Positions 33,001-39,000 of a stretch of DNA of 49,831 nt are shown piece by piece (the first letter of the stretch is position 1; each line of letters starts with the position of its first letter). Origin of the DNA: a virus. The DNA lies in the UHGV virus genome UHGV-0044336; one strand, 5' to 3'. Made by a program: the position numbers.

Positions 33001-36000
33001 GCCCAGTCCTGTAAAGTGATTAGTCGAGACATTTGTCCTCCTCTTAGCTGCTGAGGGAGTTTGTGACCGATATATCTGACATGATATTAAGCTCATGGCA
33101 GGTACATCTCTTGACTGGTCATAGAGATAAATTTAATGCTGAGAAATGCAGTATTGAATTTATCAATTTTTCTATTTCCTGCGTATGGCACGTAACTTCT
33201 TAATGTGTTCTGCTGTTTCGATCTCTTCAGCTATCCGATCTGCGTCAGCTTTATTCACAGGTTCAAAGTCATGATTAAAGCGGAACATGCTGGCGATACA
33301 TGTTCTGCCTTTTCGGATGTAGTGAACTTTGTTGTGAGTGGAACGCAGGATTTTGCAGGGAGTGCCGTGGTGGTCGACGTACCAGGTGTTAGGGTAAATC
33401 ACTCTGAACATTCTTGACCTTGTGTTGTGCGGATTGTTATTCAGTGCCGATATTTACCTTTATCGCGTATACCTTTACCGGTTTATCACCGAAGTGCGGA
33501 TGTGTGATTGTCTTCACTTCATATCCGTCATACGGAACATCAACTCTGCGGCTGGAATCGTCGCGCTTCGGATATCCCTTTGTGATAATCAGGCGGTCAT
33601 GCTTACGGTTAACGAGGCGCTTTTTCCAGTAGTCATTACACAGGCGATACTCTTCCGTTTTCTCTCCGCGAATCATGGCATCGAAGTATTCACCTTTAAC
33701 GGCAAGTTGCAGGTTAGCCACGGTTAACTCCTTGCTGTGTGGCGTCGAGTAATAAATCCCACAACCGCTGAGAGCAATTTCCGCATGTACAGCGTTGACC
33801 CACAACGTTTATCGCGTTGCTGATTTCCGGCGTTACCTGTTTAGGAACCATAACCCAACCATCCGGAGTTACCGGAAGCGAGAACGGCAGCACATCTCTG
33901 TGAACAAGTTTTTGCTGTGACAGGTTATCCAGAACTTTCTGTACTGCTGCATCACCGAATACACCAAGCGCATCTGCCATAACTCCTACAACCTGATAAG
34001 CCTCAGCGCATACCGTGGATAAACCATCCGGAATTACCGGAGAGTTGCCGGGTTCTTTAATGTGCAAGCGAGGCTCACCATCTTTTGGCTCAGGCCACTG
34101 GCGCTCCATGTTGATCTTCAATTTATCTTCCATAGCAACGGTAATTTCAGCATCGCTGATGCCAGCACGGCGCTGTGCATCCCACAACAGAAACTGCATA
34201 TCAGCCCACTCGCTAAGATCGTCTGGTTCGGCTGCGGCTTCCAGTGCCTCTTTTGAGAGGTGTTTCAGTGGACCAATGGGGCCAACGCAGCCAAATGTGG
34301 AGTCAGACCATTTGGCATGCTCGTGGCGAATCTGTTCGCGTTCCAGTGATGCCAGTGCAATTCGTGCTAGTTCCATTTGTTCGCCACGAGTAAGCCCGTT
34401 TTCAAGCGGATTTTTAATGAACAATTCAATACGTTCTTTGGTAATAGTGGTCATGTGTTAATCCTCAAAACCTTATGCCCGGGCGCAAAAGTACGTGTTT
34501 TGTCTTTGCTTATTCGCCACCCGTCTTTACGGGCCTCTTTTGCACAACCAGACCATGACGTACCGATATACTCACCGAAGTCTGGCACTGGATATACACC
34601 TTCCGTACACTGGCGACAATCACAATAGAGATGCATGGTGTAACTTGCGGCAATAGCCATATCACTCTCTTTTTCCCTGAAGCATGGCAGCGTGGCAGGC
34701 ATCCTCTACGCCCTTAACTGCATCTGCGCAGTAGTTATAGCGATTGCATTCCACTAACTTCTGCCTGAGATTTTCAATTGCTTGCGCGACATCAGCCTGT
34801 ATTACAGGAACTGGCGGAACGGCTGTCTGCTGCTCTCGAACGTCATTAGTCGCTATCGGTTCTGCTGCCAACTGACTGGCATATTTGTTAATGGTAACGA
34901 TAAGCTCTTGCTCAGCCTCATCCAGACAATCACCGATACCTCGCCTGTCGCCGTCAAAATCATCGAAATCAGCACGAACTCTGGCAAATTTCAGGATTGC
35001 GGACAACACCTCACCAGGAATTACCGGAGAGTTGGTTGACGTTTCCGAAATTTCCCGAAAATTATTGGTTGACGAATTCGCGTTTTCCCGAAAGTTTCCG
35101 GCATGAAGCATAGCCGCGCGGCAGGCGTTCCAGCCTCTCACCTCTGCAATAGCGGCAACAGCATCGACCGCGTACATGCTAAGAGGGTTAGGCATTGGTT
35201 TTTCTTCAGGTACTACTGGCACTGGCTTGGCATATATAGCGGCTGAACATACCAACCCTTTGATAACCAACTGTCAGCAATGTTTTTACTCCTCGTTATT
35301 GCCGGAATACCTAAGCCATTGTCTGAATGCAGCCATGCCACCGGATTCTCTTCCAGCGATGCCAGAGCAATTTCATAAGCCCGGCGCTCAACATTGTCTC
35401 GCACATCCAAACTGCTGATACGCTCTTTGATTTCTTTAATCAGTTCTTTGTCGGTAAAAGTGCTCATATCAATCTCCATTGGTATCAATGTTTACAGCCT
35501 GACAAGACTCTTTGAGCACCCAGTCAATAGCGTCTTTCCATGCCTCTGTTTCGACTGGTGGATTTTCACGCTTAACCTGTTCATAGAAGCGCACTGCTTT
35601 AACCAGTCCTTCCGGTACTACTGGTGATGGCTGTTTAGCTTCTAAATCAGCAATTCTGTCAACCACGGCATCGACAGCATCTGAAAAGCCGAACCAGTTG
35701 CTCCACTCCGGCTCATCCCCGGTTGCTGCAAAGTACATATCTGCTAAAGCAGATTCAGCATGGTCACGCTCGTTAATGAGTTGCTCTTCGCTTTTCTCCA
35801 GTTCAGCAATACGCTTACCCCCATCCGAGATAACACCTTCGTAATACTCACGCTGCTCGTTGAGTTTTGATTTTGTCTCCTCAAGCTCAACTCTCAGCTT
35901 CCCAACAGTAAGAGCAATATCCTCGTTCTCCTGGTCGCGGCGTTTTATGTATTGCTGGTTTCTTTCCCGTTCATCCAGCAGTGCCAGCACAGTAGCCGGA

Positions 36001-39000
36001 TTGGCTGCGGCGATGAATTCAGCATTGGCCTGCTGTTCCATTTGGAAATCTTCATCGAAACCGCTTTCTGGATGCGCTCCTTCAATTCTGCAAATGGGAA
36101 TATATCCAGCAACTTCACGATGAATTAGCGCATAATCACCATCAAATCGGCTCTCTCCATATTCGAGCGACCACTCACCACACGTTGCTTTTTCTGCCGC
36201 TTCACGCAGTGCCTGATAGTTAATTTCGCTCACTTCGAACCTCTCTGTTTACTGATAAGCTCCAGATCCTCCTGGCAACTTGCACAAGTCCGACAACCCT
36301 GAACGACCAGGCGTCTTCGTTCATCTATGGGATCGCCACACTCACAACAATGAGTGGCGGATATAGTCTGGTAGTTCAGACGACGCATTTTTATTGCTGT
36401 ATTGCGCTGTAATTCTTCAATTTCTGATGCTGAATCAATGATGTCCGCCATCTTTCATTAATCCCTGAATTGTTGGTTAATACGCTTGAGGGTGAATGCG
36501 AATAATAAAAAAGGAGCCTGTAGCTCCCTGATGATTTTGCTTTTCATGTTCACCGTTCCTTAAAGACGCCGTTTAACATGCCGATCGCCAGGCTTAAATG
36601 AGTCGGTGTGAATCCCATCAGCGTTACCGTTTCGCGGTGCTTCTTTAGTACGCTACGGCAAATGTCATCGACGTTTTTATCCGGAAACTGCTGTCTGGCT
36701 TTTTTGATTTCAGAATTAGCCTGACGGGCAATGCTGCGAAGGGCGTTTTCTTGCTGAGGTGTCACTGAACAAGCCCCATGTCGGCAAGCATAAGCACACA
36801 GAATATGAAGCCCGCTGCCAGAAAAATGCATTCAGTGGTTGTCATACCTGGTCTCTCTCATCTGCTTCTGCTTTCGCCACCATCATTTCCAGCTTTTGTG
36901 AAAGGGATGTGGCTAACGTATGAAATTCTTCGTCTGTTTCTACTGGTATTGGCACAAACCTGACTCCAATTTGAGCAAGGCTATGTGCCATCTCAATACT
37001 CGTTCTTAACTCAACAGGAGATGCTTTGTGCATACCGCCTCCCGTTTATTATTTATCTTCTCAGCCAGCCGCTGTGCTTTCAGTGGATTTCTGATAACAG
37101 AAAGGCCGGGAAATACCCAGCCTCGCTTTGTAACGGAGTAGACGAAAGTGATCGCGCCTACCCGGATATTATCGTGAGGATGCGTCATCGCCATTGCTCC
37201 CCAAATACAAAACTAATTTCAGCCAGTGCCTCGTCCATTTTTTCGATGAACTCCGGCACCATCTCGTCAAAACTCGCCATGTACTTTTCATCCCGCTCAA
37301 CCACGACATAATGCAGTCCTTCACGCTTCATACGCGGGTCATAGTTGGCAAAGTACCAGGCATCTTTTCGCGTCACCCACATGCTGTACTGCACCTGGGC
37401 CATGTAAGCCGATTTTATGGCCTCGAAACCACCGAGCCGGAACTTCATGAAATCCCGGGAGGTAAACGGGCATTTCAGCTCAAGGCCGTTGCCGTCACTG
37501 CATAAACCATCGGGAGAGCAGGCGGTGCGCATACTTTCGTCGCGATAGATGATCGGGGATTCAGTAACATTCACGCCGGAAGTAAACTCAAACAGGGCTC
37601 TGGCGTCGTTCTCGTACTGTTTTCCCCAAGCCAGCGCCTTAGCGTTAACTTCCGGAGCCACACCGGTGCAAACCTCAGCAAGCAGGGTGTGGAAGTAGGA
37701 CATTTTCATGTCAGGCCATTTCTTTCCGGAGCGGGGTTTTGCTATCACGTTGTGAACTTCTGAAGCGGTGATGACGCCGAGCCGTAATTTGTGCCATGCA
37801 TCATCCCCCTGTTCGACAGCTCTCACGTCGATCCCGGTACGCTGCAGGATAATGTCCGGTGTCATGCTGCCACCTTCTGCTCAGTGGCTTTCTGTTTCAG
37901 GAATCCAAGAGCTTTCACTGCTTCGGCCTGTGTCAGTTCTGACGATGCGCGAATGTCGCGGCGAAATATCTGGGAACAGAGCGGCAATAAGTCGTCATCC
38001 CATGTTTTATCCAGGGCGATCAGCAGAGTGTTAATCTCCTGCATGGTTTCATCGTTAACCGGAGTGATGTCGCGTTCCGGCTGACGTTCTGCAGTGTATG
38101 CGGTATTTTCGACAATGCGCTCGGCTTCATCCTTGTCATAGATACCAGCAAATCCGAAGGCGAGACGGGCACACTGAATCATGGCTTTATGCCGTAACAT
38201 CCGTTTGGGATGCGACTGCCACGGCCCCGTGATTTCTCTGCCTTCGCGGGTTTTGAATGGTTCGCGGCGGCATTCATCCATCCACTCGGTAACGCAGATC
38301 GGATGATTGCGGTCTTTGCGGTAAATCCGGCATGTACATGATTCATTGTCCTGCTCAAAGTCCATACCATCAAACTGCTGGTTTTCATTGATGATGCGGG
38401 ACCAGCCATCAACGCCCACCACCGGAACAATGCCGTTCTGCTTATCAGGGAAGGCGTAAATTTCTTTCGTCCACGGATTAAGGCCGTACTGGTTGGCGAC
38501 GATCAACAATGCGATGAACTGCGCATCGCTGGCATCACCTTTAAATGCCGTCTGGCGAAGAGTGGTGATCAGTTCCTGTGGGTCGACAGAATCCATGCCG
38601 ACACGTTCAGCCAGCTTCCCTGCCAGCGTTGCGAGTGCTGTACTCATCCGTTTTATACCTCTGAATCAATATCAGCCTGATGGTGAGCAATGGTTTCAAC
38701 TATGTACCGGATGTGTTCTGCCATGCGCTCCTGAAACTCAACATCGTCATCAAACGCACGGGTAATGGCTTTTTTGCTGGCCCCGTGGCGTTGTAAATGA
38801 TCGATGCATAGCGATTCAAACAGGTGCTGGGGCAGGCCTTTTTCCATGTCGTCTGCCAGTTCTGCCTCTTTCTCTTCACGGGCGATCTGCTGGTAGTGAC
38901 GCGCCCAGCTCTGAGCCTCAAGACGATCCTGAATGTAATAAGCGTTCATGGCTGAACTCCTGAAAATGGCTGTGAAAATATCGCCCGCGAAATGCCAGGC

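Follow-up and report, generated by a model that had tools for sequence, protein, structure and literature searches.

Proline-rich linkers at the module joints of early exo-xis genes in a lambda-like Escherichia phage and their probable role in module exchange

The window, the whole 49,831-nt stretch analysed here, corresponds to the lambda-like Escherichia phage ev017. Between exo and xis it carries five occurrences of a proline-rich motif, all on the minus strand and in the same reading frame; a sequence-only reading had pointed to them, and this observation is confirmed. An exonuclease, a RecT-like annealing protein and Gam are encoded about 3 kb away in the same phage. The region contains the following features.

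35469-36233, minus strand: Ead/Ea22-like gene, 254 aa (PF13935, residues 2-146)
35607-35633, minus strand: class B linker B1, QPSPVVPEG, residues 201-209 of the Ea22-like ORF (HSP ends at 35609 and 35632, 15 loci)
35213-35467, minus strand: o91, 84 aa from ATG, with a GGAG ribosome-binding site, N-terminal fragment of a frameshifted multi-module gene
35232-35238, no strand assigned: frameshift site, sequence TATATAT (from comparing the DNA with that of L015 and L018)
34662-35270, minus strand: o202, C-terminal fragment of the same gene (phrog_14306, residues 26-202)
35202-35228, minus strand: class B linker B2, KPVPVVPEE, o202 residues 15-23 (HSP starts at 35225-35227, 16 loci)
35103-35129, minus strand: junction motif class D, copy 1, NACRAAMLH (DNA 87% identical to copy 2; HSP ends at 35104 or 35106, 12 loci)
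35031-35096, minus strand: tandem 33-nt duplication, NFRENANSSTN / NFREISETSTN (78% identity, spacing 33), directly upstream of A3
35010-35036, minus strand: class A linker A3, TNSPVIPGE, o202 residues 79-87, containing one exact 18-mer copy
34791-34823, minus strand: degenerate class B-like site B3, AVPPVPVIQAD (from junctions in other phages)
34677-34703, minus strand: junction motif class D, copy 2, DACHAAMLQ, at the o202 C-terminus
34451-34660, minus strand: o83/orf69, small Cys-rich gene (phrog_926, residues 15-82 of the longest ORF)
33714-34454, minus strand: DUF550 gene, MazG-like dATP/dGTP pyrophosphohydrolase family, 246 aa (PF04447 and homologue alignment)
34341-34361, minus strand: junction motif class C, IALASLE, DUF550 copy (repeat with the o91 copy)
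34020-34049, minus strand: class A linker A1, GNSPVIPDGL, with GNSPVIPDG at residues 136-144 of the DUF550 ORF, containing the second exact 18-mer copy
33855-33881, minus strand: class A linker A2, SLPVTPDGW, residues 192-200 of the DUF550 ORF (HSP ends at 33855)
33717-33737, minus strand: 3' junction of the variable C-terminal cassette, QQGVNRG*

The Ea22-like gene (PF13935 at 138 bits, cut-off 27) has a GTG start preceded by a GAGAGG ribosome-binding site. Its N-terminal and coiled-coil part is followed by a module at about residues 150-200, and after linker B1 comes a C-terminal module of 45 aa (GLVKAVRFYEQ...). Its tblastn matches in other phages stop at residues 123-152, 201 or 208. In the comparison with Ea22-family genes that the earlier reading had suggested, B1 is followed by EKPMPNPL..., NASESL... 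or GLVKAV... modules in other phages, and a fusion of the Ea22 N-part through the linker to o202 exists.

Downstream, o91 consists of an N-cap module ending in IALASLE and the module PVAWLHSDNG...WYVQPLY, and its N-terminus runs in frame into o202 sequence in L015, L018 and P0134, the intact 259-aa protein of the last being identical to o91 across residues 1-77. Intact homologues have one more base in the TATATAT run (CTATATATGCC, against CTATATATAGCC here), and there is no X XXY YYZ slippery heptamer. These comparisons show that o91 and o202 are a single gene split by a 1-nt deletion, and the 58-nt overlap described between them is therefore an artefact. The o202 part, found as an exact 202-aa ORF in 57 database members, starts with B2, a small module (SMYAVDAV...GWNACRAAMLH), the tandem 11-aa duplication and A3, and continues with a helical module (EVLSAILKF...), B3 and a terminal module ending DACHAAMLQGKRE. 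In other phages, the module downstream of A3 is joined to a different upstream module (VKAVLRRLAGNS), DUF551 is attached at the position of B3 through PVPVTPDGW (NDVREQTAVPPV / PVTPD / GWISCS...; also P0209), and class D copy 1 has many different continuations, while homologues carry further modules beyond copy 2.

Between the modular genes lies o83/orf69, an unrelated gene of unknown function and without a linker motif; a single nucleotide separates its ATG at 34660 from the preceding stop of o202. The DUF550 gene (PF04447 at 141.8 bits, cut-off 23) begins with an N-cap ending in IALASLE, followed by PF04447 (residues 42-137); A1 connects this domain to a two-helix module (145-190), and A2 connects that module to a C-terminal cassette of 47 aa. 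Its IALASLE site has a partner copy in o91 (35351-35371; 91% identical over 22 nt, spacing 1010), and in homologue alignments both the N-caps and the continuations around this motif differ. After A1, other phages continue with DUF551, GWVMVPK... or GLSTV... modules; after A2, there are 25 distinct C-terminal cassettes, with the DNA upstream of A2 98-100% identical. The cassette closes at the QQGVNRG* junction, whose DNA also provides the next gene downstream, ASCH, with its ribosome-binding site (AAGGAG) and its GTG start (33721). In 28 loci the similarity to other phages sets in again here, at 33732 or 33720-33722, and the ...PPQEVNRG end is kept across homologue alignments. The tight packing noted earlier, with overlaps of 4 to 58 nt, holds in that the junctions are close, but starts supported by ribosome-binding sites give a 1-nt gap or overlaps of 4-8 nt, and the larger range stems from longest-ORF calling.

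Scanned in six frames, the entire window (49.8 kb) yielded only eight matches to P[VI][VIT]P[DEG], five of which are the motif sites, in one frame and within 1.8 kb. The 18-mer GGAATTACCGGAGAGTTG that codes for two of the motifs has exactly two copies (34030-34047 and 35017-35034) with 0 expected, and it appeared in 0 of 100 dinucleotide-preserving shuffles. DNA self-alignment extended this repeat to 23 nt at 91% identity and revealed a third copy, 74% identical, at 33860-33882. The five sites had been taken for one recurring motif, SPV[IV]P[DEG]; the sites are real, but they form two separate DNA families. Class A (PV[IT]P[DG]) has the DNA GGCAACTMTCCGGTAAYTCCGGATGGTTGG, about 30 nt, and the peptide G-N-S/Y-P-V-T/I-P-D-G-W; A1 is the canonical 30-nt DNA apart from its last codon, A3, at a distance of 987 nt (329 codons), is the 5' half and A2 the 3' half. 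Class B (PVVPE) has the peptide (A)PPxPVVPEE, and B1 and B2 are identical at 20 of 24 positions with a spacing of 405 nt (135 codons). The ORFs had also been considered modular paralogues, a term that is too strong, since they have the junction motifs and a few small modules in common and no overall homology.

Nearly the same class A DNA of about 30 bases is found in hundreds of related phages, and the linker keeps one and the same codon phase throughout. For the 30-mer there are 535 phage records, where the annotation of the gene reads EaA or DUF551. At 55 class A sites from loci picked by protein similarity only, CCG, GTA, CCG and GAT were each used in 55/55 and GGT in 53/55. A codon-degenerate scan of IMG/VR gave 120 sites, 83 of them in loci already fetched by the canonical-DNA scan; among the 37 in newly fetched loci, 5 were canonical and 18 had the single variant GTA>GTG, and the Ser codon was TCT in 35. 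Synonymous sites hardly vary, and this holds also for junctions with no relationship on either flank: pairs with unrelated flanks are 73.5% identical in the linker versus 26-27% in the flanks. Their exact identical run has a median of 16 nt (IQR 13-22) and reaches 23 nt in only 17%, so many pairs fall below the published pairing minimum. In class B, synonymous sites vary and the median exact run is 8 nt; it is conserved mostly as protein and makes a poor homology patch except between close copies. Only class A DNA is conserved strongly enough that it could act as a homology patch.

Across about 300 related loci, the linkers occur in 247 distinct junction contexts. These group into at least 52 upstream and 33 downstream module clusters, paired in 84 combinations; 40 four-gamete squares (U1,U2 x D1,D2, each complete) are found among them, and DUF551 alone has 22 different upstream partners. 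The commonest 3' HSP ends lie right after linkers, at 33855 (A2, 46 loci) and 34022 (A1, 31 loci), counts of loci that are not independent because IMG/VR has many near-identical prophages. Counted as distinct breakpoints, 35 of 276 fall at the five linkers versus 16 expected (p = 1.6e-5), an enrichment of only about 2-fold, most breakpoints lying at gene boundaries and in the Ea22 coiled-coil region. In change-point analysis, and with pairs that are likewise not independent, 471/647 pairs that agree upstream and differ downstream lose their identity at +16 to +23 nt, and in the converse pairs identity begins at -9/-8 or -2 to 0 (91/97). The linkers also lie at domain boundaries: class A separates the Pfam envelopes of DUF550 and DUF551, the core motif of A1 (139-143) comes shortly after the last residue of PF04447 (137), and in P0022 the DUF551 envelope begins at G199, directly after PVTPD at 194-198. 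This boundary role, raised in the earlier reading together with structure prediction, is borne out by the Pfam envelopes; the two AlphaFold models are of low confidence (pLDDT 39.6 and 44.6).

Several phages have architectures of recombinant type. L005 and L008 carry Ea22(1-208)-linker-o202 module with an overlap of 24 nt in the linker between the two alignments, which in L005 are those to the B1 side and the B2 side; in P0145 a module is inserted between two linker copies; and the 25 cassettes after A2 belong here too. These are the products that linker-by-linker recombination would be expected to give. Modules of Ea22, o91/o202 and DUF550 are also fused in single ORFs in other phages, e.g. 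P0006, P0180 and L005. A few junctions have no linker, e.g. ...QGNCIKDGWISCSERMP in L005.

The explanation that we favour for the modular architecture, with a probability of about 0.65, is that these early multi-module genes are joined by Pro-rich linkers and exchange modules at class A by homology-dependent recombination. The exo-xis genes encode multi-module accessory proteins in which SPV[IV]P[DEG] marks interdomain linkers at the module joints. The comparisons directly show this modular build with the linkers between modules, the conservation of class A as DNA, the breakpoints at the linker edges and the recombinant-type architectures; from them we infer exchange by homologous recombination within the linker; inside class A it could swap, delete, insert or fuse modules with the reading frame intact, the partners being co-infecting phages, resident prophages or copies within one genome. 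The Exo/RecT-type system that the phage itself encodes is the likeliest enzyme, with RecA as the other candidate. Being extended and Pro-rich, the peptide may let the flanking modules fold independently, so that most chimeras would stay functional; given the low pLDDT, this flexible-spacer role finds no structural backing in the models. Class B (PP)xPVVPEE, IALASLE, ACxAAMLQ and the next gene's ribosome-binding site and start apparently play the same role. With the corrections given, the earlier interpretation is supported: a shared linker at module-exchange joints agrees with the many unrelated neighbours, edge breakpoints, Pfam envelopes and recombinant-looking architectures, and the proposed recombination hotspot fits the comparative data, with the mechanism suggested by them and class A alone a plausible DNA patch.

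The sites need not have been exchanged through their DNA. Under the Hendrix/Juhala model, rare illegitimate recombination could occur anywhere, with selection for in-frame joints at domain boundaries, and the linker would be kept purely as a peptide, its DNA having no role. The protein-level conservation of class B, the class A median run below the pairing minimum and the junctions without any linker are in line with this, as is the near-obligatory linker before DUF551 (70/80 contexts) and GWxxVP modules (16/16), where it could therefore partly be the N-terminal arm of those modules. However, independent illegitimate joints should not have a common 30-nt sequence, and here one DNA sequence, its rare codons TCT and GTA included, connects upstream modules of more than 50 types with unrelated downstream modules of more than 8 types; moreover, inter-locus identity crosses the linker and stops exactly at either edge, and the two alignments in L005 overlap within it. 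We consider this model unlikely. Retention of class A DNA for a nucleic-acid function other than shuffling, e.g. as a CCGG-N5-CCGG hairpin that affects mRNA stability or translation, or as the target of a nuclease or of a protein that binds DNA (TCCGGA, CCGG), is decidedly improbable. It would suit the nearly invariant synonymous sites, the 5-bp hairpin predicted in all three class A copies of the window and the presence of the same 27-mer in three Proteus species, where its surroundings look non-coding, but the folding z-scores of -0.7 to -1.5 are not significant, an Rfam search around the Proteus copies gave no match, the one constant codon phase at module joints is unexpected for an independent DNA or RNA signal, and class B joints behave similarly without a hairpin.

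Even more remote is the idea that the ORFs are fragments of one larger disrupted gene with the motif as its internal repeat. This is true locally for o91/o202, and the single-ORF fusions in P0006, P0180 and L005 could be read in the same way; yet ribosome-binding site, start and stop are separate for each of the Ea22-like, o83 and DUF550 genes, whose junctions are of the coupling type, many phages have these same gene boundaries, the unrelated o83 lies in between, and the three motif-bearing ORFs have no similarity outside the junction motifs. Finally, that the motif recurs by chance, or through the composition of low-complexity, proline-rich sequence, has a negligible probability: it is a short motif whose definition came only once it had been seen, but the clustering of five of the eight matches in one frame, the shuffles and the 535 phage records refute a chance origin.

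In the modular theory of Botstein and Campbell, short conserved sequences flank interchangeable modules and were proposed as sites of homologous exchange (summarised in PMC2839356). The idea of a conserved short sequence beside exchangeable modules is the same here; their linkers were envisaged between genes or functional gene blocks, whereas the present one is intragenic, frame-preserving and translated as an interdomain peptide. T-even tail-fibre adhesin genes recombine between conserved motifs ("His boxes"), and P22-like tailspike and Erf proteins undergo domain swaps. There, too, short conserved intragenic motifs or junctions separate exchangeable domains, but in virion or recombination proteins with host-range or known functions, while the proline-rich linker occurs in non-essential early accessory proteins of unknown function. 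The Erf and tailspike swaps are mentioned in PMC2629481.

In T4-type phages, the repeated PeSL element flanks ORFan cassettes in hyperplastic early-gene regions, and recombination between its copies leads to cassette insertion, deletion and replacement, as shown experimentally through mini-circles (Arbiol et al. 2010, PMC2839356). Both are repeated conserved elements that flank exchangeable cassettes in early genes; PeSL is intergenic, about 100 bp long (promoter plus stem-loop) and moves whole genes by demonstrated recombination, whereas the linker is intragenic, about 30 nt long, moves protein modules and is known from sequence comparison. The enzymology assumed for its exchange is the relaxed recombination of De Paepe et al. 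2014 (PMC3945230), in which the Rad52-like Red-beta and RecT act on homologies, short and diverged, that phages share with defective prophages; the minimal pairing segment for Red-beta is 23-27 bp, and intragenic stretches of ~100 bp are reported to be exchanged often. That work concerns homologies of hundreds of bp; the patch here has only 30 nt. Widespread recent domain-level mosaicism in phage proteins (Nat Commun 2023, PMC10684548) is a further likeness in its ongoing shuffling of protein fragments; a text search of that paper returned neither "linker" nor "Ea22", and neither joint sequences nor the Ea22 family were found to be treated.

In the same gene family and exo-xis region are the published mosaics of Ea22 and DUF551: ea22 genes with a common N-terminal and coiled-coil part and unrelated C-terminal domains, and a "portable" DUF551 of lambda and Stx phages in many architectures, including DUF550-type pyrophosphohydrolases (Sci Rep 2024, PMC10834534; Antibiotics 2021, PMC8614690). 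Text searches found no proline motif or recombination mechanism in PMC10834534, no use of "linker" for these joints in PMC8614690 and no conserved joint sequence described in either. Ea22 mosaicism has thus already been published, and a class A/B joint linker was not found in the literature searched. Compared with those mosaics, the joints described here are defined to the nucleotide and are common to more than 80 module combinations.

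On the best-supported reading, the motifs are interdomain linkers rich in proline, and the coding DNA of one of their two classes (class A) would serve as an in-phase homology patch for module exchange. The window matches Escherichia phage ev017 (NC_049948, genus Jouyvirus, lambdoid) at 100% identity over the 3.1 kb tested. The linkers lie on the minus strand of the early-left accessory region, between xis (32796-33032) and exo (37185-37865), and an exonuclease, a RecT-like annealing protein and a Gam-like inhibitor are annotated in the ev017 record just upstream of the linker genes.

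Linker genes and their neighbours, in transcription order
36230-36451, minus strand: TraR/DksA zinc-finger gene, first in transcription order
35469-36233, minus strand: Ead/Ea22-like gene (PF13935)
35213-35467, minus strand: o91
34662-35270, minus strand: o202
34451-34660, minus strand: small Cys-rich gene (phrog_926)
33714-34454, minus strand: DUF550/dATP-dGTP pyrophosphohydrolase-family gene (PF04447)
33437-33721, minus strand: ASCH gene, GTG start
33172-33411, minus strand: DUF4222 gene, last in transcription order

The overlaps quoted for these ORFs in the sequence-only reading are mostly longest-ORF artefacts; starts supported by a ribosome-binding site leave 1-nt gaps or 4-8 nt overlaps, a pattern typical of translational coupling. 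The gene end QQGVNRG-stop (33717-33737) also encodes the AAGGAG ribosome-binding site and the GTG start of the ASCH gene, which is why a Q(E/G)VNRG-stop C-terminus is kept in many DUF550 and DUF551 proteins, and this end bounds the variable cassette on its 3' side. o91 and o202 are a single multi-module gene, split by a 1-base loss in the TATATATA run at 35232-35238. The extra base in the TA run is present in two related loci (L015 and L018), where the ORF is uninterrupted, and an E. coli protein of 259 aa (P0134) has 77 residues identical to o91 followed by o202 sequence. With o91 and o202 as one gene, KPVPVVPEE becomes an internal linker, and the 58-nt overlap reported between the two ORFs has to be dropped as an artefact of the split. 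The identical 202-aa o202 ORF is found in 57 database members, so the split is not a one-off sequencing error. A programmed ribosomal frameshift at this point was rejected, since there is no X XXY YYZ slippery heptamer and homologues have an uninterrupted ORF. The RefSeq record lists o91 and o202 as two separate hypothetical proteins, with the start of o202 shortened.

All five peptide motifs first noticed in the sequence were found, in a single reading frame, and a six-frame scan of the whole window for P[VI][VIT]P[DEG] gave 8 matches, five of which are these motifs. The 18-mer encoding two of them has exact copies at 34030-34047 and 35017-35034 only and occurs in 0/100 shuffles. As five of eight scan matches share one frame and no shuffle contains the 18-mer, the observation is real and non-random, and recurrence beyond chance is upheld. 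At the DNA level the supposed single motif resolves into two families. The class A consensus, GGCAACTMTCCGGTAAYTCCGGATGGTTGG, encodes G-N-S/Y-P-V-T/I-P-D-G-W, while class B encodes (A)PPxPVVPEE.

Linker copies and further repeated joints
34020-34049, minus strand: class A copy A1, canonical
35010-35036, minus strand: class A copy A3, 5' half
33855-33881, minus strand: class A copy A2, 3' half
35607-35633: class B copy B1
35202-35228: class B copy B2
34791-34823: degenerate class B site B3
34341-34361 and 35351-35371: joint IALASLE, 91% DNA identity (repeat search, homologue alignments)
34677-34703 and 35103-35129: joint ACxAAMLQ, 87% DNA identity (repeat search, homologue alignments)

A tandem 33-nt duplication at 35031-35096 (NFRENANSSTN / NFREISETSTN) abuts A3 upstream and is retained in homologues. 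Further non-canonical linkers were sought in 19 genome loci and none was found.

Judged by domain profiles, the linker sits between independently defined domains: PF04447 ends at residue 137 of the DUF550 protein, two residues before PVIPD, and DUF551 begins at the G-W right after PVTPD. The DUF550 ORF (33714-34454) matches PF04447 with 141.8 bits (cut-off 23; residues 42-137 on profile positions 1-96 of 97), and the protein is by this profile a predicted member of the dATP/dGTP pyrophosphohydrolase family. The Ea22-like ORF (35469-36233) matches PF13935 with 138.1 bits (cut-off 27; residues 2-146 on positions 1-139), a match that takes in the N-terminal and coiled-coil part of the protein. 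The DUF551 profile (PF04448) has no match among the ev017 ORFs; the A2 cassette of ev017 is a different one, of 47 aa, where homologues carry DUF551, which in two close homologues follows directly after the same linker (residues 199-273 of P0022 and 230-304 of P0209). A C-terminal domain like the solved one of lambda Ea22 was not found by PDB sequence search (no chain at E <= 0.1; two matches up to E = 1, both unrelated proteins), consistent with the published mosaicism of this domain (PMC10834534). PDB sequence searches gave no usable homologue of either the DUF550 or the Ea22-like protein. The available homologues are all >70% identical and alignments for AlphaFold2 were therefore shallow; the models place the motifs in coil at 118-145 and 180-208 of the DUF550 protein (mean pLDDT only 39.6) and at 1-28, 81-85 and 136-153 of o202 (44.6), between helical segments, and are too uncertain to count as evidence.

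NCBIfam and PADLOC gave no match to the modular proteins, and in PHROGs they match families of unknown function only. A single large family with a 461-position profile, phrog_60, matches the Ea22-like, o91, o202 and DUF550 proteins because modules are shared; it is a clustering artefact in which shared modules and linkers chained unrelated proteins together. Positions 35655-35819 of the window (residues 139-193 of the Ea22-like protein) match phrog_4790, 'host RecBCD nuclease inhibitor', with E = 7e-7.

Comparative evidence on module exchange comes from 160 IMG/VR loci, retrieved with the Ea22-like and DUF550 proteins as protein-level queries. The ends of tblastn matches cluster at the motifs (201 or 208 in the Ea22-like protein, 144-157 and 201 in the DUF550 protein), and the commonest 3' ends of blastn alignments, at 33855 (46 loci) and 34022 (31 loci), fall directly after A2 and A1; around B1, further blastn alignments end at 35609/35632, and at B2 alignments begin at 35225-35227. 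With duplicates removed, the five linkers account for 35 of 276 distinct breakpoints, compared with 16 expected (p = 1.6e-5), breakpoints in absolute terms being commoner at gene boundaries and in the Ea22 coiled-coil region than at linkers. When motifs were listed in frame, many unrelated upstream modules (for example EPRLHIKEPGNS, KLVHRDVLPFSL, DAEPNFDVNGNS, VKAVLRRLAGNS, QTYKLNELSGNS and DRIADLEAKQPS) turned out to be connected through one shared linker to many downstream modules that are also unrelated (for example DUF551 (GWISCSERMP...), GWVMVPKELTPEM..., GWVMVPKRLTAENGAK..., GLSTVCAEAYQ..., EVLSAILKFARV... and EKPMPNPLSMYAV...). Across the loci compared, 52 upstream and 33 downstream clusters formed 84 combinations with 40 four-gamete squares. 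The proposal of a linker between exchangeable modules is thus supported: from genome to genome, the same linker is bordered by unrelated modules on either side.

Change points, counted from the first Pro codon, were located in junction pairs that share at least 95% identity over the upstream 150 nt and have unrelated downstream sequences. Identity stops at +16 to +23 nt in 471 of these 647 pairs and at +44 to +50, past GWISCSERMP of DUF551, in another 165, while in the converse pairs it starts at -9/-8 or -2 to 0 in 91 of 97; the pairs are non-independent and the counts are therefore descriptive, not probabilities. With identity edges on both sides, the linker is the zone common to both partner sets, and homology between genomes breaks there.

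Several architectures are of the type that recombination between linkers would leave. Two loci (L005 and L008) encode Ea22(1-208)-linker-SMYAVDAV...NACRAAMLQ-DUF551, and their alignments to the B1 side and the B2 side of the window overlap by 24 nt within the linker, the signature that would be expected of a B1 x B2 crossover; in ev017 the two sites are 405 nt (135 codons) apart. Among homologous proteins, one has an extra module between two class A copies (P0145), one has DUF551 joined at the B3 site (P0209) and one has modules of o91/o202 type fused to the DUF550 domain (P0006). After A2, behind upstream DNA that is 98-100% identical, there are 25 different C-terminal cassettes, about a dozen of them DUF551 versions whose WISCSERMP and HWMPLPEPPQEV ends are conserved around unrelated cores, and the locus resembles a cassette or diversifying locus. 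The DUF551 cores are hypervariable, with 40-60 aa between GWISCSERMP... and ...HWMPLPEPPQEV (L083-L162, P0010-P0120).

Class A is conserved as DNA, synonymous sites included. Across 55 sites in loci chosen by protein similarity alone, CCG, GTA, CCG and GAT are each kept in 55/55 and GGT in 53/55, and in junction pairs with both flanks unrelated the linker is 73.5% identical versus 26-27% in the flanks. TCT and GTA are minor codons of E. coli, at roughly 15% each. As a guard against circularity, IMG/VR was scanned with the codon-degenerate pattern AAYNNNCCNGTNAYNCCNGAYGGNTGG, which returned 120 sites, 83 in loci already fetched by the canonical-DNA scan and 37 in new loci. Five of the 37 are canonical and 18 have one variant, AACTCTCCGGTGATTCCGGATGGTTGG; their flanking modules are very diverse, and TCT (35/37), CCG (34/37), GAT (35/37) and GGT (34/37) are retained. 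This conservation reflects common descent of the DNA and not convergence on a peptide. Where flanks are homologous but diverged, the linker is 100% identical versus 84.5% in the flanks, an underpowered comparison with only 8 usable pairs, because flanks are either near-identical or unrelated. Class B third positions are 56-87% conserved, and DNA-level conservation does not extend to this class.

On the homology-patch reading, the class A coding sequence would offer a short stretch of homology in the same codon phase and thereby allow in-frame module exchange, with recombinases supplied by the phage's own Exo/RecT/Gam set, an enzymology that is plausible. The idea of a recombination hotspot for module shuffling is supported as far as joints and breakpoints at the linkers go; the homologous mechanism is inferred from comparison. 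A weakness of the homology-patch reading is the length of the shared DNA: the consensus spans 30 nt, but between junctions with unrelated flanks the exact run is 16 nt in the median and 37 nt at most, with just 17% of pairs attaining 23 nt. The minimal pairing segment is 23-27 bp for Red-beta and 31-34 bp for RecA, and Rad52-like phage recombinases act on short, diverged homologies (PMC3945230). For class B, conservation mainly as protein argues against a role as DNA patch. DUF551 and GWxxVP modules are, moreover, nearly always preceded by the linker, and its conservation may therefore be structural in part. An extension of the homology-patch reading, which we regard as doubtful, is that class A persists by promoting recombination, as an in-frame 'splice junction' of Enterobacterales temperate phages used by single-strand-annealing recombinases to build combinatorial early-protein libraries. 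Cassettes, for example the hypervariable DUF551 core, would then be exchanged between the linker on one side and the ribosome-binding site and start of the next gene on the other.

The class A 30-mer is present in 535 of 50,697 phage records, in at most two copies per genome and usually under EaA or DUF551 genes; these are lambdoid, Stx and P22-like phages of Escherichia, Salmonella, Shigella, Klebsiella, Enterobacter, Serratia and Proteus. The exact 27-mer is also found in prophage regions of Kluyvera, Citrobacter, Hafnia, Brenneria, Scandinavium and others. A second class A allele, AACTCTCCGGTGATTCCGGATGGTTGG (GTA>GTG, Ile form; L301-L333, IMG/VR), is common to many different modules; its contigs have a somewhat higher G+C of 0.48-0.56 and are presumably from other enterobacterial genera. 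In Proteus hauseri, P. terrae and P. faecis the same 27-mer (L282:1217-1243, L288:2667-2693, L297:4173-4199; ~0.001 chance matches expected) is apparently non-coding, with stops in the flanking frames, and adjoins terminator-like sequence; an Rfam match and local repeats were sought at these copies and neither was found. A role of the linkers in RNA structure is not supported: the small CCGG hairpin has z-scores of -0.7 to -1.5, which are not significant. Linker-bearing DUF550/DUF551 genes in assemblies labelled Segatella copri (MAG; L283, L284) and Chryseobacterium sp. (L286) are 98-100% identical to E. coli prophages, and their presence in these Bacteroidota-labelled assemblies is most likely binning or assembly contamination. 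The class A sequence AACTCTCCGGTAATTCCGGATGGTTGGATACC is also a CRISPR spacer of Shimwellia pseudoproteus DSM 3038 (NZ_WBXP01000006), at about 5401-5432 in an array (L292:5008-5882) whose 28-nt type I-F-like repeat, TTTCTAAGCTGCCTGTACGGCAGTGAAC, recurs every 60 nt in at least 15 copies. A phage sequence that is invariant and widely shared is therefore a target of host immune memory, and if class A does persist by promoting recombination, this spacer would reflect the cost of keeping such a sequence.

The long-standing debate on phage mosaicism sets homologous exchange at conserved linkers against random illegitimate joints filtered by selection. The locus is a compact case of mosaicism defined to the nucleotide, a translated linker of ~30 nt with near-invariant synonymous sites that connects dozens of unrelated modules across hundreds of Enterobacterales phages, beside phage recombination genes, and at class A the question becomes open to experiment. 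The linkers also offer a rule by which the poorly understood accessory proteins of the exo-xis region (Ea22, EaA, DUF550, DUF551) can be divided into functional units, and a model from nature for designing in-frame chimeras. For annotation, exo-xis ORFs should be read as strings of modules, and split genes such as o91/o202 recognised.

In the literature searched, where older subscription literature is thinly covered and an earlier mention is possible, there is no description of the proline linker or its conserved DNA, and no relevant hit came from searches with peptide strings (PVTPDGW, NACRAAML and others). The Botstein linker hypothesis is known from older literature, and T-even tail-fibre genes recombine at conserved intragenic motifs. 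We classify class A as an intragenic, translated, Botstein-type linker in exo-xis accessory genes. Mosaicism as such is expected in the exo-xis region; the anatomy here is unusually clean. The mosaic make-up of Ea22 variants and the portability of the DUF551 domain have already been published (PMC10834534, PMC8614690), protein-fragment shuffling is general in phages (PMC10684548), and T4-type phages shuffle cassettes via intergenic PeSL linker elements (PMC2839356). Were the broader, recombination-promoting reading true, it would be direct and testable evidence that Botstein-type linkers exist within genes, and the linker would be the homologous-recombination analogue, at the level of protein domains, of integron and PeSL cassette systems.
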